This document shows, piece by piece, positions 14,300 to 38,182 of a stretch of DNA of 64,000 bases. Made by a program: the position numbers and the translations under genes. Source of the DNA: Obrimoposthia wandeli (taxonomy: Eukaryota); the NCBI GenBank assembly GCA_977020255.1, contig CDROCS010000715.1, positions 558,001 through 622,000 on the forward strand. The letters are read 5' to 3'. The notes beneath the pieces were generated by a model. That model was not told the DNA's origin, ran no database searches, and was given only the letters and a program-made list of their open reading frames with translations. Every line of letters begins with the position of its first letter. Position 1 is the first letter of the stretch.

Positions 14300-17200
14300 A
14301 TCTAAAAGAATCATTTTTCACTATTAGTTGTGGTTTCTATGAATTAAAGAGATATAATCTTAAACTGTGATTTTGTAAATGTTCACACAAATTTTATTCC
14401 AATCACAGCTAATATTTTTACACAATTCAACATCTTTTTGATATTAACAATTCAAAACTCTAGATTCCCTCATTTTGATTCATATGGTCCTTGGTTAAAA
14501 AGAGTAATCGGTAAAAGAGTATATATACATATATATCGTCGTTCTGAATTTTCTGTTGTATGTAACAATTCAAATGAAATATTAACTTTATTTAAATAGA
14601 ATAAAATCGCTCCTCCAGATAGTTTATTTTCAGAAATAATTGATTGTGAAAAAGGCGAATGTTTAGTGGTAAGTTTATAAAGCAACACCCTTCAGCACAA
14701 ACTAGGTTGGATTGGAAAAAATCGTTTTTATTCATTTTGTCAGTGCTTTTGCAAAAGATTAGGAGAATATAGTGAATTTTTCTTTACAGAGGATTTAACA
14801 GATCTCAATGTAAAGTAAGCCAAGGAATCTTTTTATGTATTTCATATGTTAACAAATTATTGCATTAAACAAGTATGAAGCTATGGCAAATGATGACTGT
14901 GTAAGAATGATTGGTAGACAATTATACAAAACACGTAAACGTTTCTCAACGGCCATACTAAGGTGGGTATGCCAGAAATCGTCTCCTCCCTAAAGCCAAG
15001 CTCCGGCTGGTTGCCGTAGTACTTTCTTTAGCAAAGTGGATAAATATGGGAATTGCTGCGATTTATTACAGGAATTAGCCGTTGACACCCCGAAATCCCG
15101 GGACACTCTAGTTATGATGGTGATCAATGGTGTAAAAACTGGCGACTTACACCTCGTCATGGGTTCGAACTGACGATTAACTGCCATTTATAATTAGACG
15201 TGCTTATGGTGAAAAGGTCAACAATGCTGCTAGAACCTTCTTTCTTGAAGACGAAAGTGGTGTGTTTGTGGTTTGGTGTGGAATGTTGGTCTAATAAAGA
15301 CCGGTCACCTTGGTGACTTTTCCCAACAAAAAATAGCAAATAACGCAATAAGTTATTATTTTAAAATTAAAGCATCAATTTTAGCACTGTTTCATTTAAA
15401 TGCCCATGTTAATATACACAATAGAAAAACCATCAAAATTCCCATCAATTACGTAACCTCTCCAGTTGACGAATTACCTGGCTCGACATGTAAGAGGCAG
15501 CAAATAATATATAATAAAGCAAAATCAAACTAACAAATGCTACTTTTTGTTCTACTTCACAAAAAATCAAAAAATAATTTCTTCAACAAGATTGAGTCTT
15601 TTTCCTACTAATACTTGAAATGTAGAATTTGCATCTACTTAATAGAAGGAATGAGTGGTATCAATTTATCAATGAATTGTGTGGGACCATTTATTTGTAA
15701 AGTAAATAATCACATTTCTTCTTTAAGTTCTCAAGATCTTTTTAATTGAATAAAAAAGTCTGGTAACAATTCCTGTTCTGTAACAATTAGGCATAGAATA
15801 AAAATGTTAATTCAATCAATTTTCAACGTGAATTGGATTTTATTTTGTAATCACTTAACGTCTTAGAAACGCAATTGGTTAGTACGTCTGCATAGATTTC
15901 GTACTTTGGAATTTCCAGAACTGTGTATCAGCAAAGACGCATATAATCTACCCAGGAGTCTTATTGAGTGTGTCATAACATTGATTGATCTTCATCACAA
16001 TTTATTTATAATGTTCACAGAAGTGATTTTTGATGGCGTCTTATTACTGGTCTAGTTTTACTTTACAAGTTGGCTAACGTAATTATTGCTTTCTTAATCC
16101 TGCTTAATTCATTGCTATCCTAGAAGAGAGAAGAACCTGAGTGATGACTTGGAAATGACAAGAATAAAGATTAGTTTTTTCCGTGTGCCGGAAATTTAGA
16201 AATACTGGTTTTATGTGATGAAGATAGATAAAATCTTTATTAGATAATTATATTGGCAAATATTTTGATACATAAAAAAATTTAGATTATGTTAAGTTCT
16301 CATTAATTTTTCTTTCGATTTATATTCCAATTTATCTGTTCAGTATTTAAATTAATTCTTTCATCCATGTATTCGTAGACATATAAGGCTGGAAGCAAGT
16401 AAGAGCTCCAAACTTGAACACATAAAATATCTATTAGATTAGATTATTAATTTGATTAAGTCCAATTTGAAAATCAACATCAAAGAAATTGAAACTTTAT
16501 TTGTACATTTATTTTTACATAATATTTCAATAGCCTCATTTAGTTTTTGATGTAAATAGATCGGCACATTTATTCTTTTCAATGTGTTTTAAATTATTAT
16601 TATGATATGAATATTCTTTTTTTTTTATTAACTTTTATAGTTAAAACATTTTTTATATACTTTTAGAATTTTAGCAGTGTTCATTTTTAGTTGATTTGCG
16701 TCACTTTGTATGCTGTAAAAAGTTTCAAAACTTAAACTGAAAACTTTTATTTTTTAACATTTTTTAATCGGTTTTATAAAACTTGTATGATAATTTGAAA
16801 TTTGGAGACTAAGTATTCTTATTTTTTCATTTATGTTCAATGATTAAGATTTTTTGACTTTTTCACTGTAGGTTCTGTCTATTATGAAATAAAATAATAC
16901 AAAAGCTTCATGAAAAGTACATTTAATTCAATGTTAGCCAATTCAAATTTTCTTCTTTAAATATTTTTTTGTAAATTTTCCATAAACTTTCAAAAAAAAT
17001 TATTTGAACTAAATACATATTTTAAAAAATTTACAATGACTATAAACAATAAAAAGTATATCAAATTAATTTTATGTTACATTATATAAATAAACGTTTC
17101 AAGAATTTAATTTTTTGTAATTAAAAATGATCTAAATTTATGTAACTTAAATATAAAACTAATTGATTTATACTTTTGGTTGTGTAACAATTTATGAAAT

Positions 17201-17553
17201 AAAAATAAATGAAAAAGTTCAACTAAACAGATATTTGATAAAATAGCCAAATAAATTTTGATGATAATTTTGGTCAATTCGATCTGCTATAAGATTGATT
17301 TAAAGAATTTATGTAAAATATCAAGTTTTTTAATGTAACTTAATATATTAACTTGTTTTTCTTGTTAAATATTTCAATAATATTAAAATTGATTTTACAT
17401 TATTTTAATTTTAGGGTTTGAAAAGTAAAATATGTTATATCAGCTTACAAATCTGTAACTTTAAGTTGTTAATTGTAGCAATAATTTTTAAATAAGAAAG
17501 TCTTTATGGGTCACATGAATTCTTAAATATTATTATATTTTCTTACTCCCCAG

Positions 17554-17937
17554 GATAACTATTGTAAAGCTTATATGACAATACCCGGAAAACAAGGCCT
17601 GATTCTTCGATTTAGATATTTGGATTGTTAGTTTGATATTATTGCAATTTCTTCTCAAAATGAATGAACTTGGAATTTCAGTTTCAAGAAGTTTATTCAA
17701 ATATGGAAGTAACTATAAAACTAAGTATTATTGAATGAATATGAGCAATATATTTTCCATACAAATCATAATATTTGATTTTTTCCGTATCTAAACCGAG
17801 AAAATTTTAATTGAACCGTTTTTCTTTTATACTTAAATTGTAAATAATCTTCACTGCTGTGTTCATAATTTCGTTTTGTCTATTTAGATCAATTTGAGGT
17901 AGATTGCGCAATAATAAATTATGATAATCTAGTCTAA
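17554..17937 (+). pseudogene. Two spliced CUB-like exons in the spacer of the inverted repeat
   Basis: Exon 17554-17626 (cag|...|gttagt) encodes DNYCKAYMTIPGKQGLILRFRYLD. It joins in phase 1 to the exon at 17888, YQFEVDCAIINYDNLV*, followed by NGDSS in a shifted frame. Confidence 0.45.
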
Positions 17938-18433
17938 TGGTGATTCCAGTGTGAACTTTATTTTGCTTAGTATTTGTTTGACAGATTTTTTTATCTACGT
18001 TTCAGACTGTAATGGATTAATGGAAATTTGCGTGTTTCTTTCATTTGGAACAGAATAAAAAATACTTTGATGAAAAGGATATTAATTTAAACACATCGAA
18101 AGAATTTATGTCAAATTATGTATTAAATAGAAAAAATATATTTTGATTCAAATTTGTTGAGCCACATTTTATAGGAAAATTATTTCATTTCAGAAATACT
18201 ATTAAAGACTTTATTAAAATAAATTAATGTATAATTCAAATATTTAATATTTAATTTCCAAAGCTGTTGCATAACTATTTAAGTTGGTCAGGAGATTGAA
18301 GACAGCATAATATTTACTGACTGTAAAATAATCTAGTTGCACAAATGCGCTAAATTGAGAAATGTACCTTAAAAATCTGTGCCAGACGTTTTTGAATTTC
18401 TACAAAACAAGTATATATATAAATATATTTAAT

Positions 18434-21400
18434 TAACGTTTTGAAAATAATTTGAATTCACTGAAAATTTCATTTAATTTAGAAGCTTAAATATATTTTC
18501 ATTGTTAATTCTATATTTTCATAAGTATTTATTTAAAGCAGCCATCCTCAATGACCGCGGATCGATGTGGTCTGCAAGATAATTGTTTGATTTGTTAAAT
18601 AAAAATATTATTTTGACATTTTCTAACCCAGAAATAAACCTGTCTTGAATTTTATTTTTTAAGCTAAATTGACTTTTGCAAATATATGATCAAACAATGG
18701 AATTTTTTTAAAAAAATTTCGGGAATTAAAAAATATCAATGGACACAAAAACGTTAAAAAGTACTACAAAAAATCATCTATCAGGTCAGTTGAGTATTGA
18801 AATTGTATAAACGATTTTTAGAAAAATTATAAATGCAAAAAAAAATCGGAAGACACAGAAACTTCTGAAATTATTAGAAAGTGGTTAACTTTTTCATAAT
18901 ACAATACTCAAAATTCACAACTTTGATAAATAGGGAAACAAAAACTGTATTTAAGAAATACATTGTTTAAAGGTCTTTTGAAACAAAATGTAAAAACGAA
19001 TTGAAAAATATATAAGTTGGATACGTCAAAATTTGAACTAAATAGTCAGCAAAATATGTTTTTCAATCAGCTTATATTGTCAAAGAAGCTATTATGTTGT
19101 GTTGCTTATAGCAAAGAAGAGAAATTGATGAACGAATGTATGGAAGCCGTTATAAAAGATATTAGTAAAGTGAGTTCAAGCATAAGTCTGTCGCATCAAA
19201 CAGTATAGCGTCACATCAAAGATTTTTCAGATGACATGAAAGGGGTATTACGAGATCGGAGTAAGGAATTCAAAGTGTAATCTTTAGCTTTTAGTGAAAA
19301 CACATATATTTCTGACAGTTCACAATTTACTGTATTTATGTGACTCAAATAATAATCACTTTTTTTAAGCTTGAAAATTATTTTTTAAATGTTTAACTGT
19401 TAAAAATTTGTAAATCGAAACGCTTTCAGGTTTAGCAAATTATGCAGATCAGGCTATGGTCGGTAAGACAAAGAAGGGATAAAGTGTATTATGAATGAGG
19501 TGGAGACAAAAACATCGACGTCAGTAACGGGCTTGTACAATTAACAAATTCTCAAGTTTTTATCTATGAACCATATTATGAATTTGCTCATAAAAATGTA
19601 AATTACATTCGATCGCATTCGCTCTGACATCGCACGGCCAAGGCCTATCTAAGCGAATTATGTACCGAATATGATGATATTGTGTTTTTCACCAATGTAA
19701 GATGGATCAGTCGTATACAATACTTAAAACAATTTTCAGAGTTAGAGGATTGGGAGAAATTGGAATTTTTATGATTTAAATTATCTGACTTTTTTTTCTG
19801 ACATTTTTTAAGTAGAAACTGAAACAATTTTCCATCTAAATAAGGCGTAGCAAGGATAGAATAATTTGATTGCCGAAGCTTGTGATCACATCAAAACATT
19901 CTAAATGAAACTGATATTACTTGAGCGTCAACTTTCAAAGGACATAGCTCAACATTTTCAATTGGTCAATGATTTCAAAAATAGTCATTATAGGAATTCT
20001 ACAAAATATGCGGATGAAATAAAACATCTTGCTGTCATTCACCCACCATTTCTCAGAACTCTTAAAATATATACAGTTTTTAAGATATTTTGTTCATCAT
20101 TGCACTGCAAACTCTGCAAATGGAGCCAACTGAATTACATTACAACAACAATTACGAAGAATTAATAAAAGTATGACAAACTAAAGTAAAGCTTGTATGC
20201 ATATACTTGGAAAGCCTTTCTTATTTCTTCAATTTAAAACTTTGATTAACCAGTCTTCTTTTATTGTCATTTCTTCTTAAGTTAGTTACACTTGGAATTT
20301 CAATTTAAAGATGTTTATACAGACATATTTGTGACTTTGAAACTAAACAAATTTGAATGTATGCGAGCATTTATCGACAAACAATGTAGTTAAATATATA
20401 TAGTTCTTGGACACTTCTTATTTTATACAATATTTGAAAATAATTCTTAATGCTTTGTTTATATTTATTTGTAATATATTTAGATAAATATTTGGAAGGT
20501 TGTACGATATTGAGTTGCATAAATCTAACCTAGAGATGAAAAAAGCATTCATGAACATGATGGTAGTTTCTTTTAATAAGATTATATAATTGTATTTACT
20601 ATTTCAAAGTTACAGTTTTTAACAAAATTTTCAGTTTATTCAATTGTAGTGAAACTTATTTTATTTAAAATTTTGTTGTAAAACTAATTTCAAATTATTC
20701 AAAATAAATTTAGAAAATGGTTATAAGCCTATCTGAGTGATTTTCTACTAAATGAATTCTATTGGATAGGAACGTGTTTTACTGGAATATTATATAAACA
20801 GTGTTATTTACTATTTACCATTTTCAAATAACCATAAAGGAAAATAAGGAAATTGCCAACCGAGAAGCATTGTATAGAATGCAATCATGGACTCCATTTC
20901 TTATTTATGTCGTGGTAGGCACCTTCTATTTTTTGCTACATTGACCACGTTCAGATGGGTCTGAGTCTCATCATATTGGGATGCAGTGTAAGTTGGTTTT
21001 ATTAAACTTTAAACGAATCAATTAAATACAGAAAACTATAGTTTAATATAAGTCCGAAATATTAGCACGCAATATAAACTAATAATCTTCGAAATTAAAA
21101 GCCTTTACTATACAATCCATATTTTTTCATTTCTACATAGTAATCAGTAATAAATATATATCTTTTATTAGTTTACATGTACTATTAAAAATCATTCCTG
21201 TATATGTGAAACTTGTATCTTACCAAATATTTTTTCTTCAACAATTTTATTAATTGTTAATCAAGCATTTTCTATTACTTAATTTTGTATATTCGATACG
21301 TTTTCATCAGTCAAATATGTTCGAGATTGCGTAACCCTTTTTGCATCCGCGAAACTTGTATATTGGCTATTAAAATGCTTTTAAACAGTTGTTACTGATG

Positions 21401-24400
21401 ATGCTTCATCTCCCGATGAAATTTGTAGCAAATCATAAATATATGAAAGTTGAAATATATTTTCCTTCAAGGTATAAATCAAACATCGGTAATATTTCTT
21501 TTTAATTCCAAACGTCCTTCAAACAAAACAGTTATTAAATATAAATAAAGATAAGTACTTTTCAATTTACCTACAAAGCTGTTATTTCAGATACAGTATT
21601 GCTAAGCTTATTTTAAAATGCAAAATGGCTTTGTCAGATATAGCTTATTAAAATATTAAATAGGTTTTTTCATACCTTTTTACTGATCTAAGTACATTAA
21701 ACTTTTAGATTATTTTAAATATTTCGAGTAATGATTTAAAATATTAGTTAATGTATTTAGAATACGTTATTAATGCTCTTTATAAAATATCTAAGACTAC
21801 AAGCGACAGAATAATAAAAACGACAAATCTACTGATATAAACTGGAATAAATTATGCTATCAAACAAAACCTTGTTATAATAATATGGAGCTGCTTAATC
21901 AAGAACTTTGGTTATTTTTTTGTGTAAAAGAAGCAATAAAAAAATTGTTTATCAAATTAAATGCTTTAAAAATGTTGACAAAATAAATATGGGGATATTT
22001 TGATGAATCTAAAAATTATACAATTTATTTCATAAAACGGAAATTATATACAATGAAATCAATAAATACTAAGCCATAAATCATATATCTATATAAAGCT
22101 GATAAGAGTATTTTAGAAGAGAAATACCAATTTTCTCTGAGGAGATTATTGGAAATCTAATCTCCAGTCATTTTATTCACAAATCTAATTAAAATTATCG
22201 AAACATCTGAGAAATTCTTACACAAAACTAAATTGAAGAAAAGAACAGATGTTCCTATTTTATCGAAATATTAATCTATGGATCTGTTTATTTAGCGTCT
22301 GTTATTTAATAATAGATTATTTTCTATATAGTATTTTAAAAAGGATGTAGATTATATCAATTACTTATGATTTTTTTAAATTAGTTAAATATATCTGTAT
22401 TAAAACAGTATATACCCATAGATAAAACAATAACATAAATTAAAGTAGGGTAATTTAAAATATTTTAATACACAGCAAAGTATTAATAATTTTTTAAAAT
22501 TATATAGTATCAGTACAGTGCCTCCCAAATATATATATATATCTACATTGTTACATTAAACGTTTTAAAGAAATTATTTCATAACTTAAAATTTAAAATA
22601 ATTATAAATTGAATAGAGTAATACAATTTATTGACATTTTGTTTAAGTCTATCAATTATGATATTAATATATTGTAAAGTTAAAATTGCATTAAAACAAT
22701 ATCATTTATAAATTTACTAAACTTTCCTAAATTTTAACTACATTGAAACAAGTAGCATGAATTACAAAGTTTGTTAAACAATATAAATTTTAATGAAAAT
22801 AATACTGCTTAAATAGCTTTACCTTTCTATGTTCTATTACATGAATAATTATAATTATCGGTACGTTAATAGCCATATTCAAGAATGTTCCTTACCTTTA
22901 GGGATCACAAACTGAAATTATTTCCTTAGCAAAGAGTTCTTTAGCTTTTTCTATTAGTTCAATTATAAATAAAATTTGCATTTTCTTAGCTAATAAAAAT
23001 AAAAGGACAAAATATTTTAAATATTTTATTTAAGTTTACACATTTTAAATTTTCAACAAAAATTGAAATACTAATATGATTCATGGAAAATTAAACATCA
23101 AATTTCAACAAACAAAAAGAAAATCCAAAATATTAACAACCATAAACTAAATTCAAGAATAAAATTATATTAAAATAGAAATTTCAAAACCTAAAAAATC
23201 AGATTAGGAAGAAAATAAATGTCAAGAAGTATAAAAAATTGGAAACAAACATAATTAAATTGTTTTGATGAACATGTAAAGAAATCTGCTCAAAACGTTG
23301 ATCACATTGACAAAATTTTAATAATTTCATTTTGTTTTTGAAATTTGTGTTAGGATATTCAGTTGTTTTCAAATATATATTTATGAATCATTCAATTTTT
23401 ACGAAATTGTTATATTAAATACCATTTGTTTAAATTATATAAATGCAATGTAAACTCTAAAAATGTTTTTCTAAATGTTTTCATATTAATATAGATTAAT
23501 TATTAACTAAAGGTAAGCTTTATTTCATTGTCAAATATTAGGTTAGACAAACGTAAGTTTTCAATAAATATAAATATTTTAAATATTTATTGAACTTATC
23601 TTTAATTTTAAATTATTTTTAATTAGATATTTTAAGTAAATTATTATTTAATTATAAATTATCTTTCTTAATTTAGAACTTAGATCTTTTGATATAGTTG
23701 AAAACTAACTTTTGGCCACAGCTGTAATTTTCATATTTTCTAACATTTTTATTGATTTCGTGGAAAATATTTTCATATCAACTTTTAATAAAACTATTTG
23801 AAAGAAATTCAAATTGAAAAACGGTATTCAAGTTATTTATCAATCTCTAATTTTTTTGTGTGTAAAATAAATGTAAAACAAACCTCCATTGTATTGCCTT
23901 AATCTATTCTCTAAAAGAGTTTTTTCTAAAATACTTTTCTTAGATAAAGACAGTTTTTAATACCAAGGGTAAACAAATCCTTAACATTTTCAAATTATTC
24001 CCTGTAGGTTCATGAATACGGCCCCGAGAACCTCTGAACCGCATTCTACGTTGTTGGAAAATATCATAAAATAACTATACAAAACTCTCCAGAACGAATA
24101 TTGAAGCTAGTGGAAAGTAATGAATCATTTATGATTTAATTCGATTTTATTCTGTTTAAGTGTTAAATTTTGTTTTTCGTTTAATTTCCGTTAAAATATT
24201 TCATATGGAAATATTTTTGGCATGATTTAATTTGTGAAATGTAATATTAGTTTTTTAACAAAGTTAAACTGAACCCTATTTAAAACTGTCTTTCAATAAA
24301 CATTAACTGTCATATTATAATCACAAAGAAAATAGCAAAAATTTAATTATATTTAGAAAAATAAAAACACAATTAACTATGCAACTCTTAGCAGTCTCTT

Positions 24401-25392
24401 TTTTTATTTTTGATAACTTCATTTCATTTTTCATTTCAGAAAAGCGGAAGTCCTGGAGGATGAATCTTATAAGAAATGTTAACTTTTGTTTATCGTTGCG
24501 TGTCTCTTTTATATGATTTTTAATTGTTCTTTGATAAACTTGATACAGTCCAATAAAGTTTAACATTCAAGTTTTAATCTTAATTTACGTTTATTCTCCA
24601 CAGTAATACGAAACAATAAAAATGTATTTTCAGATAATGCTTTAATACACTGTCTAGACAAACTGTCGTGCAAGATATTTCAAAATGGTTAAGTTGCAAT
24701 TTAGAAATTTTGCGTAAGTTATATAAAAATTGAACATACTTTAAATATTTAGAATTAACAGTTAAAATTTATCAATAGTTTTAAGAAAGAAACCATAACA
24801 ATAAAATGTCAAAGTAGGAAAGTGATAAAAACATGCAACAGTCATCAAAAAATATTTATTTTAAAAGAAAATACCGTACTACTGAGATTTATACAATGCT
24901 AATGCATGCGATTATAAGACTTGATATTTTAAATTATTTACAGTTTAATATTTTAATTTAACAATTATATCGATTGCAAAACAATTTAAACAATGCGGTT
25001 TTTATTTAAATTAAGGAACATTGGTTGTGTAAGTGAATTCCAGAATTTATTTTAAGATCCTACATATTATAAAATTTTGCACACCACTTTGTGTGATACG
25101 CTAGAGCCTGGAACAGTGATGAAATATATGCAGTTTAAGAGCAACGATAACGACTGCGGATAGGTTAAGAAATTCTCGGGAAACTATAATTGTGATGGTA
25201 TATTTGAAATTTATGCTACGAATTTCGACATCAATTTACAGTACAAGAAAGTGTAACAATGTTGAAAAAAATCAAATAAACAACTGAAGACTTTACTATT
25301 TAGAAAATATGAAGAAAAATAGAAAACGTAAATCACTTTTGAGTAATAAATCATAAATTTATTAGATATTACCACTGCATGAAATATATTTT
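18434..25392 (-). repeat. Right arm of giant inverted repeat (about 6.96 kb)
   Basis: Reverse complement of 6491-13011, with an extra roughly 463-bp segment (about 21505-21967) absent from the left arm. Confidence 0.97.
18960..20170 (+). mobile_element. Decayed hAT transposase (GTF2IRD2/Spin-Buster-like), right-arm copy
   Basis: ISLSHQTV; SLAFSENTYISDSSQF (degenerate SLALDESTDISDTSQL); EYDDIVFFTNVRWISR; MKLILLERQLSKDIAQHF. Many stops and frameshifts. Confidence 0.85.
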
Positions 25393-26673: not shown

Positions 26674-26820
26674 ATTAGGTGGATGTGTCCGGTCTAATCC
26701 ACATCCCCCTCCCCCCTGACAAAAATCGTGCATATGTGTGGAGTGAAAATTCGTGCATGTGTGTGGAGTGAAATTTCGTGTATGTGTGTGAAGGGAAAAT
26801 TCGTGCATGTGTGTAGAGGA
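26674..26820 (+). repeat. Left TIR of Polinton B with four 25-bp tandem units
   Basis: Units start at 26721, 26746, 26771 and 26796 (aaaattcgtgcatgtgtgtggagtg consensus). Confidence 0.9.
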
Positions 26821-27091
26821 AAAAATTGAAAAAGCATCGAATAGGAGGGAGCGGGGGTCCCCCCATATTTTTTATTTTACTGGGAAATTTACCACGAAAG
26901 TGGTTAGAGAAGACCACGGGAATCCATATTGGACCCGGTGGCTTATCGCAGACGAGATTTCAAATATATTGCTACTATTTTTAAGAAAGATTACTACGTG
27001 TTAAATATTTAGGTCAGAGAGAAAAATAGATCTATTTAATTTAGAGGAGAAAAACAAAATACGAGTCAAAATTAGTCTTTCAAAACATTTA

Positions 27092-27553
27092 TTAAACATA
27101 AAACAACATAGTGGCTTCACTCAAAGTCCAGAGAGGCTGCATTTTCCCGTCATCAGCAAAATATCCATTTAGACGTATTGAGATATTCCATAGTTCTTCA
27201 TCTAGAATTAGAGCAATCAAATATCCTAGATCATCTTTAAAATCCAGACTGGGATCAGTTTCAAGCTGGAAACAATTTCCTTCATATACATAATCAGGAA
27301 TGTAAAATCCCAAAATATTTTTCAATTGATCAAAATCAGATGTTGTTAAAATTTCGATGAGATATTTATTCTCCACTTTTGATATTTTCACAGGATTCAT
27401 AACTCGTATAATTTGATGCTTCTTTAATATATTACATAGTTTTCCTTTTGAAATTCTCTCTGGATAATAAAAGTTTCCTACACATCTCTTATCCATTCTA
27501 AAATAAGGAAACTGATTAAAATCAATGTTTATAAAAAAATACATATAAGACAC
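27092..27553 (-). CDS. Polinton accessory protein, paralogue 1 (putative OB-fold ssDNA-binding-like)
   Basis: Open 153-aa ORF. Shares NPVxI, DFxxLK, FxDDxG and WxIxIRLxGY with 27656-28114. C-terminal IRLNGY...GK..PLWTL resembles viral T7-type SSB strands (inference). Confidence 0.5.
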   Translation of the reverse strand: MSYMYFFINIDFNQFPYFRMDKRCVGNFYYPERISKGKLCNILKKHQIIRVMNPVKISKVENKYLIEILTTSDFDQLKNILGFYIPDYVYEGNCFQLETDPSLDFKDDLGYLIALILDEELWNISIRLNGYFADDGKMQPLWTLSEATMLFYV

Positions 27554-27619
27554 AAATATTTAAAAAATAAAACTGATTATTAAATGAAAGAAACATAGTA
27601 AACCCGATTACAATTTATT

Positions 27620-28114
27620 ACACGCAAAAGTTAAAACATAGAATTATGAGCACGTTCAATTTTCCACATAGGCAACTTTGTCTCCTTTTTCATCTTTCTT
27701 GTAACCATAAAGTCGAATTGTTACAGTCCATTGCTTCTTTTTCGGAAACACATCATTATCAACATATCTTCCATAGTCATCTAGAAATGCTTCATCGGGT
27801 CCTCGGATATAAAATTCGTTCTTATTGAAAGTAAAATTCGGAACTGCCTTTTCAACTTTCTGTTTAAGATATTGAAAATCTGGTTTTTGAATATTTGATA
27901 GATAGTAGCTGAACTTTCTTCTTTCAATTGTCACAGGATTTACTAAAGCAATCAGTTGAGCCTTCTTCAAGAATCTGACTTTGTTTTTGAAATATTGTTT
28001 CACTTCTTCATACATATCCTTATCCGATTCTTCAAACATTTCTATATCTTCCTCATCGCTAAATACCCGTTGGCTATCATCCATCGTTGATAATTGTCTT
28101 TGATATGAATGCAT
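27620..28114 (-). pseudogene. Polinton accessory protein, paralogue 2 (acidic N-terminus; frameshift near C-terminus)
   Basis: 152-aa ORF. A frame change after GDK gives LPMWKIERAHNSMF, which aligns with QPLWTLSEATMLF of paralogue 1. Confidence 0.55.
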
Positions 28115-28363
28115 TTACTATGATTTGTCCTCCAATGACGCATTCTTTTATACTAATTTCTAACAAAGACATGAATCTCATTGGTTAATATAACTAAAGC
28201 ATTGAATTTGATTGGACTAAAACCATATTAAAAATCCAATTTTATTGGAAGAAATATATCATCCAATTATAATAGATTTGCAAGATAATTACAAGAAACG
28301 TGCAATAAAAAGGTAGGTTCAGACATATATAAAGAAGATTTTACAGAATACAATTTTAGTCTA

Positions 28364-28865
28364 ATGAAACTCGTAAATATAAATTATAAAGGTAGAACAG
28401 AAGATGATGTTTCGTACTTACCATTCAATGAATGGAAGCCGAGACAATATGTGGAAAAGTTTGACAATTTCACAGTTGTTATTTTTCCTACAGGTTAGTT
28501 TTTTTATTTTATTTTCATATTGAATTCTTTTAAGAAATTGTCGTGTTATGGGATGCAAAATATTAATGCTTGGGTTCAATTTACCATTTGTAATTCGAAT
28601 CACTGCAATACAATCAATCACATTTTCGGCTAATTTTGGGACACAGATAAATCTTTTTAAAACTGCAGAGAAAATGAAAGAAGAATGCATGTTTGAACCA
28701 GAAATCTTTCCTGCTCTCAGTTATTTGAAGTTTAAACCGCTATGTGTAAATATATTTTCCAGTGGTAAAGTTATGATATTGGGATTGAAAAATTTTGATT
28801 ATCCAGACATTGTTGATTTGATTTTAGAAAATATATCTTATTACATGTTATTATCTTTTTTCTAA
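28364..28865 (+). pseudogene. TATA-binding-protein (TBP)-like gene with one 40-bp intron (acceptor mutated)
   Basis: Exon 28364-28493 ends VVIFPT|G. Intron gttagt... 28494-28533 ends in AA instead of AG. Exon 2 gives GNCRVMGCK...FEPEIFPAL...VNIFSSGKVMILGLK, i.e. both TBP repeats (IFxxGKxxxxGxK; YEPExFPxL). Confidence 0.8.
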
Positions 28866-28893
28866 ACAAACCCGTTTAAACTTATTGTTTCAA

Positions 28894-29165
28894 ATGAATA
28901 ATACTATAAATAGAGACAATGGAGTGAATCGACTTGCCGACAAATTTTTTCTGGAAAAATTAGGGTTAAAGAAATTTTATCAGAATTAAATAATAATGAT
29001 ATAACAAGAGATAACATTGAAATATTGGTTAGATCACACGTTATTCGAGAAATTAGAAATCGTACACAAATAAATAAAATTATAGCCAAATCATCATTAA
29101 TTAATTTTTGTATTTCATCTACAATAGCTCTAACATTGTACATTTCAATAAGGAAACTTCTATGA
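28894..29165 (+). pseudogene. Small frameshifted ORF with C-terminal hydrophobic segment
   Basis: MNNTINRDNG... then a frameshift to ...SSLINFCISSTIALTLYISIRKLL*. It lies between the TBP-like and ATPase genes on the same strand. Confidence 0.3.
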
Positions 29166-29199
29166 TAATATAAACAATATTAAAAATGAAAGAGTATAT

Positions 29200-29834
29200 G
29201 CAATGGAGCTAAATAATAATGCTGTATTTCAAATAGTTGGTCCCAGTGGAAGTATGTAAATTGTTGCAAAATGAATCTCTTTTCAAATCTAGTTTCAAAA
29301 ATATTTATTGACATCATGGTGGAGAAGGGTAAAGCGGATTAACCAAAACAGAAGTTTGCAAGTTGAAGGGAATACAATTTATTGAAGGATTTGATGCAAA
29401 TTGGTGTGAAAGATTGAAAAAAGAAGATGTAATAATAATTGATGATTTGTATCAGGAAGCTAACAAGGAATCAGACTTTAATAATTTATTTACGAAGATT
29501 GCAAGACATCGTGAAGTAACAGTTATATTTATCACTCAAAATCTTTTTCACCAAGGAGGTCACCATAGAACTAGAAATCTTAATGTGCATTACTTAGATT
29601 TTATTTAAAAATCCTAGAGATCAAACAGTTGTTGATTTCGTGGCCAGACAGGCATTTCCCCAAAATAAGAACTTTTTAGTTGATTCATTCCACGATGCTG
29701 CTAAACAAGCACATGGGTATATATTTATTGACTTTACACAAGCTTGCCCAGATGATTTACGTGTTTTAACCGACATATTTAGTTCTAAGGGAGTAACTGT
29801 TTATAAACAAATAGAGAACAATCATAAAAGATAA
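29200..29834 (+). pseudogene. Polinton genome-packaging ATPase (A32/FtsK-HerA-like)
   Basis: VFQIVGPSGS (Walker A with GKT deleted), VIIIDDL (Walker B), LFTKIARHREVTVIFITQNLF, FKNPRD, GYIFIDF. Frameshifted. Confidence 0.92.
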
Positions 29835-29841
29835 ATTTATA

Positions 29842-29982
29842 ATGCCTTTTAAGAAGTTGATAGTAAAACGTAAAGCAAAGCCTAAGAAATCAAAAAAAAT
29901 AATCATTAAGAAAAAAGAAGTAAAAAAATTAATCAAATCTGTAGTTAGAAATAAAAAAAAACTTAAATGGCTTCGAATATAA
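29842..29982 (+). CDS. 46-aa lysine-rich micro-protein (candidate virion core/DNA-condensing protein)
   Basis: MPFKKLIVKRKAKPKKSKKIIIKKKEVKKLIKSVVRNKKKLKWLRI*. Intact ATG-to-stop ORF within the morphogenesis gene run, too short for the supplied ORF track. Confidence 0.5.
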   Translation: MPFKKLIVKRKAKPKKSKKIIIKKKEVKKLIKSVVRNKKKLKWLRI

Positions 29983-30013
29983 AAAATATTTAAATTGAAC
30001 CTTTTTTATTAAA

Positions 30014-30335
30014 ATGAAGAAAATACAAAGAAGCATACCCTATTCTAAAGCTTTAGTCAAAGCCTCTTCACATAAGAGAATGATTATTCTTAAAGCATTT
30101 CCATCTTTTGTTGTAGATGATTTATTGGAAGTTTTGTATAATATAATTTATGGTCGAGTAAAAGTTGGAAAACGGAAAAATTGTATTAAAGAAATATAGC
30201 AATAACTCTTCTAGATATTGCTAATGAAAAGAGTAAAATAAAGAAACGAAATATTATTCTTTGACATAATGGTGGTTTCATAGGGTCTGTTATTCCAGTT
30301 GTTGCTTCAATTATCAGTAGTATTATAGCTGCGAC
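30014..30335 (+). pseudogene. Conserved small Polinton protein ending in GGF(I) plus amphipathic helix
   Basis: ...DLLEVLYNIIYGRV..., then after stop/frameshift KKRNIIL*HNGGFIGSVIPVVASIISSIIAA, typical of the small Polinton gene upstream of integrase. Confidence 0.6.
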
Positions 30336-31080
30336 ACGTACATAAACAATTATTTCAAAAATCAGCTAAAGATATGGGTGCTAACTCTTCTTTACCTAAA
30401 TTTAAACTTTCTATATATTCAAATTGTTGTAATGGAGAAGATATAGTTCAATCCAAATGGATTTGATGGAGATGATCCCATATTCTTCAATTAATAAGGG
30501 ATATCGATATATTTTAACATGTATTGATGTGTTTAGCAGGTTTGCTCTTGCAATTCCAGTTAAAGCAAAGTCTTCAATAGCTATGCTTGAAGCCATTAAA
30601 GAAATATTAAAAGAGGACATTCCACAAAATGTCCAAACTGATTTAGGAAAAGTATTTTATAATAAGCTAGTTCAATCTTTATTTAAACAAAATAATATAA
30701 ATCACTACTCTGTGTTTTCACTGTATAAAGCAGCAGTAGTAGAAAGATTTAATCGTACTTTAAGAGATCGAATAAAAAGTATTTCACAAAAGAAGGAAAT
30801 AAAAAATGGATCCAAGTTTTACCTAAAATAATACATGCCTATAATCACTCGGAACATAGAAGTCTCATGGGAATGAGACCCGTTGATGTTACTAATAAAA
30901 ATTCTATGGATATTTGGATGAACAGGAATAAAAAAGAAAATATTAAAAAAGCTAAATATAAGAAAAACGAATATGTTCGAATTTCGAAAATTAGCTCTAC
31001 TCCATTTATTAAAAGCTTTGATCAGAATTAGAGCGATGAAATATTTTGTTTAAGTAAAATTGATCAAAAGAGTAATCCAA
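30330..31080 (+). pseudogene. Polinton retroviral-like (DDE) integrase
   Basis: QMDLMEM, YILTCIDVFSRFALAIPVK, VQTDLGKVF, AAVVERFNRTLR, then WIQVLPKII.AYNHS.HRSL.GMRPVDV and EYVRISK in a shifted frame. Confidence 0.95.
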
Positions 31081-31082
31081 AA

Positions 31083-31804
31083 ATGAGAAGACTAAAACAT
31101 TTTTTAAAACCTATTCAAATTATATTTGGATCTGATAGAGAAGCTCTTCAATTCGGTTTTGACAGTGGACATGTAGTAGGTATGAAGAGATCTGATATAG
31201 CCTCATCTAAAATGTTTAAAAATGTTCCTAGTAGAGTAGTAAGAGTGTTGTTAGTTGAAACGAGACCAAAGACTGTAGTGGAACTGAAAATGTTTTCAAA
31301 AGATTATAAATTAGATAGTGAAGTGAATTTCTGTAAATTAATACAGAAGGAATGTTAAAAGATGGTAAAATAACGTTTACAGTAAAGAGCAATATAATAC
31401 GAGTTTTATTTGATGATAAACTCGTTAAAAACCTTGGTTTAAACATAAATACCTTTGAAACCCATACAATAAAAACCAAAAAAGCTAAAAATAAGGCAAA
31501 ACTTTTAAATGCTGTTAATCATTTATATATTTATACTAATTTAATAGAACCAACGCTTGTAGGAGGACAGCGAGTTCCACTTTTGAGAACAATATGGATA
31601 TCTAAAAATGAAACTAGAGATGGGGACGCTGTCGGTATGTGTATAGATCAACCAATGTATATTCCAGTTTCTCTCTTTTCTATAAACAATATTGAAGTAA
31701 ATATTAGAGATGATTCCGGACAACTAATAGATTTCACGTACGGGGCCAAGACAAGTTTAACAATACATTTAAGAAAACAAAATGGCGAATCCAGCAATAA
31801 TTGA
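31083..31804 (+). pseudogene. Polinton minor capsid (penton) protein, 5'-truncated and frameshifted
   Basis: LYIYTNLIEPTLVGGQRVPLLRTI, YIPV...INNIEVNIRDDSGQLIDF...LTIHLRK. Confidence 0.85.
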
Positions 31805-32155
31805 AGCTTATAGTCAAAGCCAACAAGGTGGAGAATTACCATATTTTGTTGGTAAACAATATGGATCTGGCTGGCTTAGAACATTAGGTAGATTTGCCTT
31901 TCCTCTTTTAAAGAGACTCGGGCGATTTATATCAAAATTAGGAAAGGACAATAAACTAAGGACAATAAACTAATACCAACTTTTAAGAAGCATGCGCTTG
32001 ATGAACTTGATAATGTTTTACCTGAAGTTGCTAATTTGATTAGAAAATGTAAATCAAATGAAAGCCAAGGAGGTAGTGGATTTAAAAGTAAAAAGAAGCA
32101 AAAAATCAATATAAACAAACGTAAGAATGTTGAAGGAACAATATTTGCAAAATAA
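31782..32155 (+). pseudogene. Polinton PZ-like protein with QGG/GSG motifs and amphipathic helix
   Basis: QQGGELPYFVGKQYGSGWLRTLGRFAFPLLKRLG, lying between penton and major capsid. Homologue at about 51010-51351. Confidence 0.75.
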
Positions 32156-32159
32156 GTTG

Positions 32160-32915
32160 CGCCAAAACTGAATTATGTATTTTTGATAAACCGCTTCCAC
32201 ATGTTGTTGTAGATAATGCTTCCTTTGAAGAAATATTTCTAGTTAACTCAGTTTCAGGAACCACTTTAACCGATTTAGAATTTAATATTAATGGTTCCAA
32301 TAGTGAGTATTTAGATTTGAATGATTTTCAAATAAAAGTATTAAATCGGGATGGTATTAATTTAGATGAAAATGCAGATATAACACCTGTAAATTATCTC
32401 TTTAATTCTTTATTTAGTGATGCCATTGTTACTCTTAATAATGTCAAAATTGAAGGTGGAAATTCTTCCTATGCTCATAAAGCTTTGATTGAAAGTATTT
32501 TGAACTATAGTACTGATACTCAAAATACTAATTTGGCAACCATTGGTTATGATAAAACGGTCGCAACTCGCAAAAATGGATTGCGGGTTCTAAAGCTTAC
32601 AAAATGTGTGGGTCTTTGAGATTGAATTTTTTTGAACAACCGAAATATTTAATTTCCGGTGTTAATGTACATCTTCGTTTGAAACGTAAGAAATGGAATT
32701 TTTCTTTGATAAGCACAGACATTCTAAAACCTAGACTTGATATTTTGGATGCAAAATTGTATGTCCGAAGAGTTAAAACCGAGCAATCAGTTTTAATGGC
32801 ACATAATATAGGAATGGAAAAAAACAATGCTTGTTATCCTATTAGAGAAACTAAACTTATATCCTATTCTTTAGGAACGGGTACACAAGCTTTTAATAAG
32901 GATCACGTTTTTTAG
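32160..32915 (+). pseudogene. Polinton major capsid protein (double jelly-roll), C-terminal half deleted
   Basis: LEFNINGSNSEYLDLND, TPVNYLFNSLFSD, YAHKALIESILNY, QPKYLISGVNVHLRLKR, LYVRRVK, YPIRETK. Confidence 0.9.
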
Positions 32916-35653
32916 AATTCTTCTCAATATAGTCTTTAAACACAAAGTTTTGACTGAAGCTTATAGCACGATGAATTCGAGTAACTTTTGCTCCCAACTT
33001 TAAGTAGAATTGAAGAAGCCGCCAATGCACAACATAATTCAACTTGTCTTCATGTGTTAACAATAATTTCTTAACCTTTGAATTAGGTGGGCATTGATGA
33101 ACAGGCGCTACTGGAAGATCATCTAATTTATCATGCACATTGGAAGGGATTGTTAAGTCATCCTCAACCAAATAGCCGATGTCTGATGAAACTGTATCGA
33201 CAGTAGCTAAATATGTCATAAACTTATTCAACTCTTCCTCATCATAAACCCACTTAAAGTTGGCATGAGATAGAGGTTGAGTAAGCGCCCACCCATACAA
33301 ATTAATAATGTCGATGAACAGAATATCCGTGCATTGATTTTTGACAACATGATGTTTGTTGACAAAGGTCATTCCACCGCGTATACCATAATCATACATT
33401 TGATACATCGCGAGATCTTGCAGTAACTCGATATCAATTTTAAGAGTTTTTATTGCTGTTGCCAATGAAAGACCAGGTAAAATAAAGAAATGCATGCAGT
33501 CTAGCCCATCTTCTGCTAAAGATTTTACATGAAAGGACTCAAAAACATCAGCTAAAAGATAAATATCTAACTTCATATAATAAAGCATATATTTTAGAAG
33601 ATTTCGACAATTATTCGCCTAAAATGTACGGGCCTCATTATAGTCTTGAAGACTTACACCCTCAAATTCAGTTATGAGAGGGATTTCTGTAGTATTTTCT
33701 AAATCTGCAAAGGTTTTCGCAAATTTATACTGAAAAATCCCTTTATCGTTAACCGAAGCTGGGAACATTGACTGTGTGATTGGCCATGCATTTAAAGATC
33801 CCGTTAAATTTTTTAAAGACCCGCTCAAAAACTGCAGAGAATCTATGAATCTTAAACTACAGAATTCAGTATATGCAGTTAAAGATAAATATTTCTCTGA
33901 ATTTTGAGGTATATATGAAATTTCCCAAGAGTTTATATTTGAATACATTAATACTCAAGTTATTAAGGTGTTAAAATCTTGAAATCGCAGTTATTTTAAC
34001 AGGAAAATTTATTCCATGATACTGCAATTCATTTTAAAAAGGGGTATATTTACTGACACGCTCTCTATGCTCAGTAATTACATCCCTTTTGAGGATGACC
34101 AATACGCTATACAAAAAGCAAAAGTTATCACTGTATTGTACGTTAACAATGTAACGTGAAAGTTGAAGAGATCTAGGTGAAGGAATGTATGAACTCCCCG
34201 AAAGATATATCATGTCAGTGAACTTTGTTAGAACAAAGCTAACATCGTGAATTCTATCTAGAATCCATCCACTACTTAACTCGCTATAATTAGCAATTTT
34301 TTCATCTAGGTTTCTTCCAATTTCAGTTACAAAATTATCATAGAAAACAGTTGCTTTATGTAAAATTACCTAAGTTTTAGTCTCCTCATTGACATTTTTA
34401 AACTGCACTGTTGCACAAAATTGAACTTTAGCCTGTCCTAATTTAGTCACTTCTGATTTTAAAAGACTTACAATATTTGAATCTTTACCTACGTTTAATA
34501 AAATTTCATTTCCTAATGGCACCTTAACAATAACATATTTATTATTTAGGTGATACTCTATAGTAACACCGTTTCTCTACATTTTTTGGTGTGACCTTAT
34601 TAAGAAATTGGCCACACCTCTTTCTTCCTACAGTCGCTGACAAACGTCCCCCTAATTGAACGGAAGACAACTATTTATATTAAATGTTGATGTTGGTGCT
34701 GCCGATGTTGAGGCAATCGCAGCTGATGTGGACGATGCTGCTGTAGTAGATGATGCTGTAGTAGATGCTGATGTACTAAATGCTACCGCAGATGATGAGA
34801 CAGTAGATGCTGCATTTGAAATAGGAGTAGCAGACATTGTCGACGAAGAAGTGGCTGTTGTAGAGGATGATGCTGCTGAAATAAATATATTAAAAAATAT
34901 ATATATATATTTTTTTAATTATTACCTCTAAGACGTGCAAACATCGATGTAGGTACTCGCGATGGGGGAGGCATAGATGTCATAGCGGACGACGGCTGTT
35001 TCACGGTATTTCCTGAATAAAAAAAAATATATATAATTACAATTTTAAAAAATATTCAGAAAAATAATAATAAAAAAGTACTTAATGAAGGCAATTCAAC
35101 TGTAGCTGGTTGGAAGTCATCTTCATTGATGGAATCCATCCAGCTGTCATCTGTGAACTCGACGAAATCGGATTCCTCGATGGTCTTCAACCAGCTGTTG
35201 TCGCTCCACTGCTCCATCTCAAAATCTTCTTGGGAGATGCCGTTCATCCACTCATTGTTATTCATTTGAGTGGATGGGGCAGAATCAGGAGACGGGAGAC
35301 CAATTGCAGGACCGTAAACGGGTTGAATCACTGCAACTGGAATTGGAGAATGTGTTGGAGCGGCCTGCAAATCGCGCACCAATTGCACAATATCCCTCTT
35401 CTTGTTGTTGGTCGTGAAACAGGATAGATGAGCTCGATGTTCACCGAAGAAGTCTCGAAACTCCTTCTCCTCCATTGTTCTGCAGAAGGGGCAGACGAAG
35501 AATCCAGACGAATAGTAGCCGGACATTATCTCCATACAGGACTCTCCTCCATGCGGAGCCGAAGCACCACAATAGGCTGGAAAGAGGATACATGTATTCT
35601 AAAAAATAAATATTAATAATGAAATAATAAGTATAGATTCTTACCATAGTCAT
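32893..35653 (-). pseudogene. Protein-primed DNA polymerase B with spliced N-terminal extension; model join(35653-35645, 35598-35082, 35012-34926, 34875-~32905)
   Basis: GT-AG introns of 46, 69 and 50 bp join in frame. Exons encode a CPFC-x14-H-x2-H-x2-C motif, acidic Trp repeats and a S/T/A linker. The frame runs (through TAG stops) into SSGWILDRI, GSSYIP, FCFLYSVL, FIDSLQFL, YMKLDIYLLADVFE, YGIRGG and DIINLYGWA. About 1 kb is deleted internally and the C-terminus is lost. Confidence 0.9.
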
Positions 35654-35871
35654 TATTTCAAATAGTCGGGGATTTAAATAAAGAAAGTGTTTGCTTATAT
35701 ACTAAAATTTATGCTCACATGCTCTTTTCCTATTGGATGAAAATATTGAATTGAAACTGAGAAGGATTGTTTATCTATTATTGGTTGACAATATTATTTT
35801 TTATTCCTCCAATTAAAAGGCTTATTTGTAATTGGATGAAAATTTTGTAAATTTTGAATTAGAAGAATTGT

Positions 35872-36361
35872 TTATCTACATGTCAAGTAATAATAAGATA
35901 GACTTAAACATTTTTTATATGCGCAATGGTCACCATGATCACGATATGGACAGCAAATATTTCGTGGAATTTTTAATAGATGATCACGTGAAATATTTAA
36001 AGTATTCAATCTCAAATTTGGAAAATATTTCTTTTAAGTTTTATACTTTTTGCCATCCATTTCATATAAAACATAAAAAATTCCATTTTCAATATCAAAA
36101 TTAGATTTTATTTTATCGAAAATACATATTTCACAAAAAGCCTTATGTCCTTCTTTCCATTTTAATAAATGAAAGTAATTAGTTAGATATAAATTAATAA
36201 ATTTTTTCTTATAATCTAAACTTCTAAATGGGATATTTATTTGAAATGTGAAACGCAAAGGATAAAAAAACGTCGCATATATCCATAATACATAATTCTT
36301 TTATAATATAATCACCATTTTTGTTAACGAAAGTCTCAAAATCTATGATATATTCCTGCAT
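35872..36361 (-). pseudogene. DEDD/DnaQ-like exonuclease-type Polinton accessory protein
   Basis: MQEYIIDFETFVNKNGDYIIKELCIMD (ExoI-like IDxE), YLTNYFHLLKWKEG, C-terminal CPYRDHGDHCAYKKC. One homopolymer frameshift and one stop. Confidence 0.55.
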
Positions 36362-36449
36362 AATTACCCAAATTTGTAGCAAATCCCTTTGTTTATAACG
36401 AAAAAAATCATTAATCAAAATTTTATTAAAATAACAAAGTACTCAGGAT

Positions 36450-36672
36450 TCAGTCTTTCATGTTAAAATTGGTATATATTGTCAATTCTCCTATGAATAT
36501 TAAAATAAATTATATTAAATATAAACATACCTAAATATTTCGAAATTAAATTACATATTTTATCTCCTACAATTTCTGGAGTATCATTTACTGAAAAGTA
36601 ATTTTTTTTATAATCTTCCATTAAATCTGGAGATAAATTTATGTATAATTTATTCCGATTTTTATTATCCAT
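36450..36672 (-). CDS. Small spliced Polinton gene (60 aa), 40-bp intron 36530-36491
   Basis: tag|gtatgt donor and catag acceptor give an in-frame ...KICNLISKYL-G-ELTIYTNFNMKD*. TATA-like tatatataa lies just upstream. Confidence 0.55.
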
Positions 36673-36774
36673 TTAACAAAAAACATTATATATAAATTTG
36701 TTTATATTTAGACAAATATGTAACATAATCAATAAAGACAAAATAATATACAAAAAATTTATTCTTTTGTAGAA

Positions 36775-37066
36775 GGACCCTCTTCCGGTTTAATCTGGAG
36801 GAATCTCTTTCTTGCTGCTCGCCGATTATCCTCCATCTCTTCTATTCTTTTTTCATCCACCTTCATTTTTTACATTTCTATCTCCTTATTCCACTCCACG
36901 ATTCGTTGTCGTTCTGCTAGCCGCCTATCTTGTATCTCCACCCGGCGATTCCACTCGGTCGCGACAGCAGCATACTAATTTTGTTTGAGGACCCTCTTTC
37001 TTAAGTCTCCTTTCTTCTCATTTCTTCTGATGTTCTCTTCTATCTTCGTTACCAGACTCTTCATTT
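36775..37066 (-). pseudogene. Basic coiled-coil Polinton protein B (second copy)
   Basis: MKSLVTKIEENIRRNEKKGDLRKRVLKQN*Y...MEDNRRAARKRFLQIKPEEGPS, homologous to 3010-3300. Confidence 0.75.
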
Positions 37067-37391
37067 TAATGAATTCCATTATTTAATTATGAAGAGGTTA
37101 ATAAATTTGAACCTATATATATATAAATGTAAGTTACTTTTAATCCAATAACAGGCAATTAAATGAAATATTTATCAAATTAGAGTTTAATAAATAATTG
37201 CATTTATATTTAAACCAAAAAAATTTAAATGATTCCTTATTAATCCAATCACATTTGAATAAGTTAACTATTTTTTCATCTTGATATTTTAATAAACTTA
37301 AAGATGGTATTTTAATATTGCTAAATTTAAAATTTAACATTTTTTTAAAATAAATATTAAAAAGAAAACACATAAAATTAATTTTTATAAA

Positions 37392-37630
37392 TTATATTTT
37401 TAAAAATTTTACAAAGTTATCATTGAGATCATCCTCATCGAAATCCCTCCGACTGAGTATTATTGGAGAAAGCGGTACTGGCTTCTTCTTCTTTGGCCGG
37501 CCCGGTTTCTTTTTCAGCTTCACCGGTTGTTGTACAGCAATTGTCTTTTCCTCAGTTTTTGACAATAGTTGCCGCAACTTTTTGGGAGGAGGTGCAGCCG
37601 ATGTTGATGGCCCCGACATAGAAGCAGTGG
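37392..37630 (-). pseudogene. Last exon of accessory gene A (AT-hook-like) in Polinton B
   Basis: STSAAP.PKKLRQLL, KKKPGRPKKK and LSRRD are shared with 2354-2782. Upstream exons are replaced by the 350-bp repeat. Confidence 0.75.
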
Positions 37631-37633
37631 GCG

Positions 37634-37984
37634 GTGTTTCTAAAAAAAACTAGTCAATTAACATTTTTGTTTGTAAATATTTTATATTACTATATTTTAT
37701 ATATTCTATATTATTTGAATGATGACTGAATGTTGTCAAGAACACAGAGATATTATAGATGTTTTTTCTTTGCTTGTGAATAATCAATATATTAAATAAT
37801 ATTTATTTTACTTCTCTAACTTTATTTTTGTGATTTTAATGAAATGCGACATTGGAAGACTATAAACATAATAGCATATTGACTAAAAACATAAAAAACT
37901 GATTTTTCTTATATTACAACGTCAGAGATCTGCATTTATTTATCCCCATAGGATTGTTGGGATCAGGACTTAATTGAAATTAAT
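37634..37984 (+). repeat. About 350-bp direct repeat, copy 1 (inside Polinton B arm)
   Basis: About 95% identical by eye to 41792-42140, from gtgtttctaaaaaaa to aattgaaattaat. Confidence 0.92.
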
Positions 37985-38089
37985 CAGACGGTGGGGGGGA
38001 AAACTAGAATATAGTCCGCATCCCAAGGCGCGAACGGTAGGGGTTGAGCTTCGCCCCGGTAGGGGCGAAACATTTGTTGGGGTATGGAG

Positions 38090-38182
38090 ACACACGTGCA
38101 CGAAATTTCACTCCACACACATACACGATTTTAAATGACAGGGGGGAGGGGGTGTGGATTAGACCGGACACATCCACCTACT
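38090..38182 (-). repeat. Right TIR of Polinton B
   Basis: Reverse complement AGTAGGTGGATGTGTCCGGTCTAATCCACACCCCCTCCCCCCTGTC followed by about two 25-bp units. Confidence 0.92.

Follow-up and report, generated by a model that had tools for sequence, protein, structure and literature searches.

The closest described relatives of the gene studied here are the pPolB genes of Polinton/Maverick elements (eupolintoviruses and Alpha adintoviruses). In the accessible text of 10.1101/2024.03.18.585575, TP and vOTU are the only domains placed ahead of the polymerase of polintons; a Y-family-polymerase-like fold is reported there for Polinton TPs, and vOTU is proposed to make a cut between itself and TP, so that TP remains on the DNA ends. 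As far as the available parts of the sources go, Maverick core genes are intronless (PMC8097293; 10.1101/2022.07.12.499685); cargo genes of Mavericks are reported to have introns, and eupolintoviruses of dinoflagellates to have introners (10.1101/2022.07.12.499685; PMC12166617). Extra domains do occur at the front of related replication proteins: Tlr1-like helicases have variable N-terminal domains and OmPLV has a helicase-pPolB fusion (10.1101/2024.03.18.585575; PMC12721341, both in their accessible sections). A pPolB leader is not described in the accessible portions of 10.1101/2023.08.22.554363 or 10.1101/2024.03.25.586562. Among the titles listed by our literature searches, none deals with a pPolB leader that is spliced or carries a zinc module.

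We analysed a window of 64,000 nucleotides from Obrimoposthia wandeli (contig CDROCS010000715.1, positions 558,001 to 622,000), in which a decayed Polinton copy carries the 5' end of a pPolB gene (Table 1). The element is a Polinton by its polymerase, integrase, ATPase and TP. Pfam matches in the window copy are the rve integrase (PF00665, also matched in a sister) and PolB, the latter reaching E 1.1e-26 in a sister. The packaging ATPase (PF04665, Pox_A32) scored above the cut-off in sister L061, and fuller family A sisters also carry endonuclease VII inside polB. The match to an adenain-like cysteine protease was weak (PF00770, E 0.03 in two sisters), and this region is deleted in the window copy. 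ORFs that are, by their motifs, candidates for the major and minor jelly-roll capsid proteins had no Pfam match in the window or in sisters. No clear 6-bp target duplication was found at the ends of the window copy, which has two internal deletions. Described Polinton pPolB elements share with this one the terminal inverted repeats, integrase, ATPase and the PolB and endonuclease VII regions, and the weak adenain match would be in keeping with them. A TP with Ser-Gly before its last strand, the LF/PAD-like fold and an OTU-type Cys motif are shared as well. Unlike those polymerases, the one described here has an extra folded Cys/His module, to which families A and B add a low-complexity leader of about 250 aa, predicted to be spliced.

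Table 1. Features of the window copy and its pPolB 5' end (positions within the window)
Feature	Position	Strand	Remark
Decayed, internally deleted Polinton/Maverick copy (family A) holding the gene	26674..38182	-	inverted terminal repeats ~90% alike
TATA-like box, ~45 nt ahead of ATG	35695..35701	-	present in 77/79 sisters; promoter role inferred
Exon 1, 9 nt: start codon, 3 codons	35645..35653	-	gives Met before first conserved Cys
Predicted intron 1, 46 nt, GT-AG, phase 0	35599..35644	-	length multiple of 3 in only 6/81 sisters
Exon 2, 517 nt	35598-35082	-	phase kept in 52/79 sisters
Cys/His module, C-x6-C-x5-H-x4-C ... C-x2-C-x14-H-x2-H	35428..35592	-	likely two zinc sites
Pro-rich variable linker, exon 2	35265..35388	-	dN/dS 0.63-1.05
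Three Trp-acidic repeats	35107..35259	-	dN/dS 0.25-0.34
Predicted intron 2, 69 nt, GT-AG, phase 1	35013..35081	-	in-frame stop in 67/80 sisters if retained
Exon 3, 87 nt, Ser/Thr/Pro-rich	34926..35012	-	length multiple of 3 in 72/78 sisters
Predicted intron 3, 50 nt, GT-AG, phase 1	34876..34925	-	length multiple of 3 in 12/79
Exon 4 start: Ser/Thr/Ala linker, highly variable length	34664..34875	-	79% S+T+A
Stretch between two compensating frameshifts, with three TAGs	34570..34669	-	frameshifts ~34660-34669 and ~34570-34599
TP domain, Ser-Gly-Trp motif at 34273-34265	34220..34558	-	broken in window copy by stop at 34372
vOTU domain start, Cys motif at 34120, stop at 34036	33934..34200	-	cut by internal deletion ~33933
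pPolB catalytic region remnant	32896..33954	-	PF03175 E 6.4e-10; cut by second deletion ~32905

A first look at the 1.35 Gb genome gave 6,002 candidate copies, 40 of which were scored. Our comparisons used 86 family A and 19 family B loci, and each count below refers to the loci that cover the site in question. The family A set consists of L002-L060 and L074-L102, minus duplicates of the window and one repeat of L008; because L074-L102 were chosen by similarity to the module the set is biased towards intact copies, and the copies are also related to one another. Pairwise identity averages about 92% in family A. A third group, family C, is younger, with a pairwise identity of 98.8%.

Several other features of these elements and of the window were seen. 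The left end of a sister element of the more diverged family B lies at 27-3380 (+) of the window; it is 73% identical to the window copy over 36694-37612, and by eye its first gene seems to be split by several short AT-rich GT-AG introns. Between families A and B, pS is about 0.37-0.41 in the leader and about 0.11 in TP/vOTU (window 33940-36000 against L106-L125), and this far higher divergence in the leader suggests recombination between subfamilies. A TBP-like gene (PF00352) is present in both Polinton families, at window 28289-28865 (+), where it looks intron-split near 28498-28535, and at L158:1673-2224 (-); in family C it stands head to head with polB. An ORF with a forkhead domain (L063:9185-9994 (-), E 1.8e-14) adjoins a family A copy. 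The window also contains a very large inverted repeat at 6491-25392, with arms of about 6.5 kb and 97-100% identity, which is either a foldback-like element or an assembly feature. About 20 near full-length, stop-free chaperonin ORFs (CCT/TCP1-like, ~550 aa) lie on different contigs of G000, for example L167-L169, and these may possibly travel on a mobile element.

The exon boundaries and the phases 0, 1 and 1 that an earlier note on this DNA had drawn were borne out, with GT-AG introns throughout, and its CPFC motif, three Trp-acidic repeats and Ser/Thr/Ala linker are all present. The pattern of lengths among sisters points to splicing. In family A, phase was kept by exon 2 in 52/79 copies, by exon 3 in 72/78 and from exon 4 to TP in 53/78, even though these segments occur in 34, 12 and 48 distinct lengths. 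Intron 2 has a length that is a multiple of three in 33/81 copies; for introns 1 and 3 such lengths are rare (Table 1), so that unspliced read-through fails, as it does through the stop in retained intron 2. Exon 1 retains its start codon in 80/82 copies of family A and in 12/14 of family B, and without this exon the first Met would come behind the first four ligands of the module. The splice dinucleotides are retained in 91-99% of family A copies, which is about what an identity of ~92% would yield anyway. In the more diverged family B they are kept in 14/14, 13/15, 8/9, 10/11, 9/9 and 11/11 copies. The predicted introns have a GC content of 6-13% in the window copy and 8-14% on average in sisters, against 43-52% and 47-52% in the exons. 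The stretch from the exon 4 acceptor to TP was free of stops in 23/53 copies of a first family A set; the whole path from ATG to TP kept all phases and splice sites in 20/68 copies, and was also stop-free in 9/68.

That the layout goes beyond chance is indicated by the in-frame dN/dS of about 0.3 for module and repeats, with shifted frames mostly above 1, and by exons keeping phase where introns do not. Taken together, the alignments make it very likely that the polB genes of families A and B have three spliced introns. A host CCT gene has one AT-rich intron of about 85 nt in a similar style, and the introns of a second host gene are longer and less AT-rich than those predicted in polB. A strict scan of the element for the intron pattern returned five candidates and missed intron 2, and is not a census. 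Reads from four runs of a single study cover the introns and their flanks as genomic DNA would; among the 15 joints listed, with 256 more beyond the listing, none coincides with a predicted intron, and the reads give no evidence on splicing in either direction. If spliced as predicted, the introns would set these genes apart from the intronless core genes described for Mavericks; the coding region of family C has none. They resemble the introns of Maverick cargo genes, and introners, in being spliceosomal introns (here predicted) inside Polinton-type elements. They differ in that they interrupt the beginning of a core replication gene; by sequence, none is a copy of another.

The earlier note had carried one unshifted frame through three TAGs into the polymerase. 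This describes the window copy, but not its sisters. The three TAG triplets are at 34654, 34630 and 34579; two further stops in this frame, at 34372 and 34036, had not been listed. The window's frame differs from that of sisters at 34660-34669 in 79/80 comparisons and at 34570-34579 in 74/80, and there is a further offset of the window copy at 34580-34599. Aligned with the sisters, two frameshifts appear nearly private to the window copy, as mutations or as an assembly error. They cancel each other, and therefore off-frame TAG triplets are exposed in the window's frame before the frame is restored; the residues encoded from about 34660 to 34575 in the window are off-frame for the same reason. 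When frame is ignored the triplets are stop-type in 68/73, 66/80 and 77/80 sisters, but they lie off the polymerase frame in 63/73, 62/80 and 72/80, and in it in only 5, 4 and 5. They cannot be decayed sense codons, as had been suggested, since sisters keep stop-type triplets at these places, mostly off the polymerase frame. Nor does the alternative hold that the first TAG (34652 in that note) is a real stop, being in the polymerase frame in only 5/73 sisters. The proposed sister alignment did find the triplets conserved as stops; reading that conservation as evidence against a continuous polymerase would have misled, because the conserved triplets lie outside the polymerase frame. In sisters, the region corresponding to 34570..34669 leads from the linker through Leu-Gly-Gly to a bipartite basic motif resembling a nuclear localisation signal (NLS), present in 35/36 stop-free copies, and then to TP.

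Eight ligands are conserved in the module, in the order C, C, H, C and then C, C, H, H, and across families their spacing is C-x4/7-C-x3/6-H-x2/5-C and C-x2-C-x11/14-H-x2-H. It had been described as CPFC-x14-H-x2-H-x2-C. The CPFC half of that description stands, but the upstream C-x6-C-x5-H-x4-C was missed and the last Cys is not general: 75/80 family A copies have it, but neither family C nor any outside match with the full motif does. From its ligand pattern the module most probably binds zinc. Its model (pLDDT 71) has a helix, a hairpin, a short strand and a second helix. No match above cut-off covered the module in Pfam, NCBIfam, PHROGs or the PDB sequences, Foldseek with the module model gave none at E 0.001, and the best Z in the VIA fold search was 3.6; the module has no catalogued name in these profile libraries and fold searches, and no fold match in Foldseek or VIA identifies a function. 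We rejected the ARS2/SERRATE zinc finger, for which the scores were too low (Z 3.0-3.6, rmsd 3.0-4.6, 51-54 aligned residues). RING domains were rejected too, their ligand order being different; the ESM Atlas rows that suggested them (0.81-0.85) are leads only, and no row there exceeded 0.86.

Word-indexed homology searches returned nothing for exon 2, for the family C module among long proteins or for alignment A1 among longer proteins. An index-free search gave 17 matches, of which 13 contain the full module and three the C2H2 half; the remaining one, P0007, is a spurious repeat match and was rejected as a relative. IMG/VR gave two weak matches of 21 residues, and the JGI metagenomes no match to P0014. 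The profile used was built from whole proteins (A1) and not from single repeat modules, and may under-reach. All the outside relatives are unnamed assembly proteins, most of them short and without polymerase parts. In P0001-P0004, P0006, P0008, P0012 and P0013 the module is repeated two or three times in tandem, and some of these proteins also have classic C2H2 fingers; the combination in P0002, P0003 and P0008 is a context like that of transcription factors.

Family C, a diverged group found in L104, shows 27% identity in the module and 41% in TP/vOTU. Here the module, TP, vOTU and polymerase lie on one ORF of 1,221 aa with no coding intron, starting with a Met three residues ahead of the Cys that matches the first ligand; the Trp repeats and the Ser/Thr/Ala linker are both missing. 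The module, the Ser-Gly-Trp motif and the OTU Cys share one stop-free frame at 17/30 short family C loci. Outside the genome, P0014 has a full module ahead of its TP region, and P0018 (1,286 aa, a cluster mate of P0009) has two C2H2 halves in the same place. Splicing is thus not the sole basis for the fusion of module and polymerase. Neither P0018 nor the full-length protein of family C scores with PF03175; both score only with endonuclease VII. In the family C model, a folded module and a disordered linker precede TP (residues 111-225, pLDDT 77-91, 34% identity to family A), whose top Foldseek matches were mostly Y-family polymerases (best probability 1.00, E 2.5e-3); as modelled, the TP domain has the LF/PAD-like fold. 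The vOTU region is poorly modelled in family C, and we assigned vOTU by its Cys motif, which is present, and by position, following the accessible text of 10.1101/2024.03.18.585575. An intron-like AT-rich GT-AG tract (L104:7383-7437 (-)) lies about 50 nt ahead of the family C polB ATG, possibly in the 5' UTR. Fragments of family C that include the zinc module also form tandem arrays (G000:C5699:20088-33909 and C4059:356043-388782), with periods of about 680 and 2,410 nt.

The Trp repeats are found in families A and B. The block has 16 D/E, 1 K/R and 8 aromatic residues in 51 aa, a composition that fits an acidic activation domain, and a spacing of 15-18 aa. By a strict pattern, stop-free exon 2 sequences have three units in 17 copies, four in six, two in two and one in one. 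The earlier note had given the ancestral polymerase both a zinc finger and acidic-aromatic motifs. Both are on the family A polymerase, but the repeats are no ancestral trait of such polymerases as a whole: their number varies (mostly 3-4), and family C, P0018 and P0014 have none. As the younger family C lacks both the repeats and coding introns, the repeats are dispensable for Polinton spread. In pairwise comparisons, whose pairs are not independent, dN/dS is 0.31-0.39 for the module and similarly low for the repeats (Table 1), with 0.87-1.74 in shifted frames for both. The Pro linker and exon 3 together give 0.57-1.05, near neutral between families. The TP/vOTU control was also high (0.63-0.92, shifted frames 0.63-0.87), probably because the differences there are mostly decay after insertion. 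These substitution patterns indicate purifying selection on the module and the repeats, and argue that an N-terminal pPolB extension with an unnamed Cys/His domain is real and selected.

On balance we consider it probable that a decayed pPolB gene has its 5' end at this locus and that in its protein the module, acidic Trp repeats that are likely spliced in, and a Ser/Thr/Ala linker precede TP, vOTU and polymerase, with the leader likely serving as an arm on the genome ends that docks host factors. The vOTU would cut between TP and vOTU and leave TP at the genome ends; as the leader is N-terminal to TP, the published hypothesis implies that it stays there too. The module would bind nucleic acid or protein. 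Where acidic aromatic repeats are present, in families A and B, they would recruit host transcription or replication factors, most likely the transcription machinery. This activator-like role of the repeats is speculative, though quite possible. If intron 2 is retained, a free protein of about 185 aa, made up of module and repeats, may arise as well.

The precursor terminal protein of adenoviruses is trimmed by adenain. The leader resembles it in being an N-terminal extension on a genome-linked TP with, in family A, a Gly-Gly motif at the boundary, but it is unrelated in sequence. The motif, exactly Gln-Leu-Gly-Gly in 51/82 family A copies and in 1/10 family B copies, has no Leu-Gly-Gly-type counterpart in the leaders of family C, P0018 and P0014; Gln/Asn-Gly-Gly motifs do occur in other small ORFs of the element. 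By analogy, the family A motif fits both GG/X processing, shown for the mavirus protease in the accessible part of PMC6048507, and adenain-type processing, whose motifs are given in that of 10.1101/341131. It is equally a speculation, and a slightly more tentative one, that the adenain-like protease of the element later takes off the leader at Leu-Gly-Gly.

Two other readings of the leader are each unlikely. In the first, the main product is a separate short regulator like Oncoid or E1A, made by retaining intron 2, with the polymerase starting at a Met in the linker and the in-frame link a leftover. Conserved region 3 (CR3) of E1A has a Cys-rich zinc-type motif with acidic segments. Oncoid ORFs, which stand alone and are defined by LxCxE plus a CK2 site, typically lie upstream of PolB in adintoviruses, according to the accessible text of PMC8502044. 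The leader is similar to both in its Cys-rich zinc-type motif, its acidic segments and its place upstream of PolB. In its favour, intron 2 brings in a stop in 67/80 copies when retained, 25/36 stop-free copies have a Met on the way from the exon 4 acceptor to TP, and the outside relatives are for the most part short and lack polymerase parts. However, phase is kept by exon 3 and exon 4 despite their many lengths, AATAAA occurs between exon 2 and TP in only 9/77 copies, the linker Met is absent from 11/36 open copies and family C is an unambiguous fusion. By eye, no LxCxE was found in the exon 2 translations, and unlike the Oncoid ORFs and E1A the leader has other ligand spacing and is in frame with the polymerase.

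The second accepts the fusion but makes the leader an adaptor for trafficking or turnover, whose repeats bind Atg8, adaptors or motors and guide incoming genomes or set polymerase levels. The repeats are short, acidic and aromatic, are under purifying selection and adjoin the NLS-like motif, and by raw count a LIR-like pattern appears in 24/26 stop-free exon 2 translations. This pattern is degenerate and common in acidic sequence, however, and the reading leaves the Trp residues and the spacing of 15-18 aa unexplained. It is more improbable still that only the module matters, for example by binding terminal repeats or RNA, and that the spliced insert is a tolerated spacer gained in one lineage by tandem duplication and intron gain. 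The insert is absent from family C, P0018 and P0014, and its Pro linker, exon 3 and Ser/Thr/Ala linker vary freely, but constraint on the Trp repeats equals that on the module, and families A and B both keep them. Programmed read-through, recoding or true stops as the explanation of the three TAGs we reject as almost certainly wrong: stop-type triplets do persist in most sisters, but out of the polymerase frame, and the window's frame at the first site is unlike that of nearly all of them.

The docking arm can also be placed in a wider scheme, which as a whole is doubtful. An animal Polinton clade would carry an unnamed two-zinc domain on its precursor TP, to which one lineage added spliced activator repeats. 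The genome-linked protein would then activate the terminal promoters of its element, possibly together with the TBP-like protein that the element encodes. A free regulator of the E1A type would come from alternative splicing, and at maturation the arm would be cut off by the virion protease. Like the Tlr1-like helicases and OmPLV, these polymerases have extra domains at the front of a Polinton-related replication protein; the domains and element groups are different, and the accessible parts of that literature describe no spliced leader with two zinc sites and acidic repeats.

Compensating frameshifts in a single decayed copy can imitate read-through stops, and this locus is a warning against reading one copy on its own. 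Annotation based on ORFs cuts such polymerases short and overlooks a family of zinc-type domains. The leader, the extra domain on TP and a splice choice that may yield a short regulator offer handles on Polinton activation and on regulation of the polymerase, and the introns predicted in a core gene would link families A and B to nuclear expression spliced by the host.
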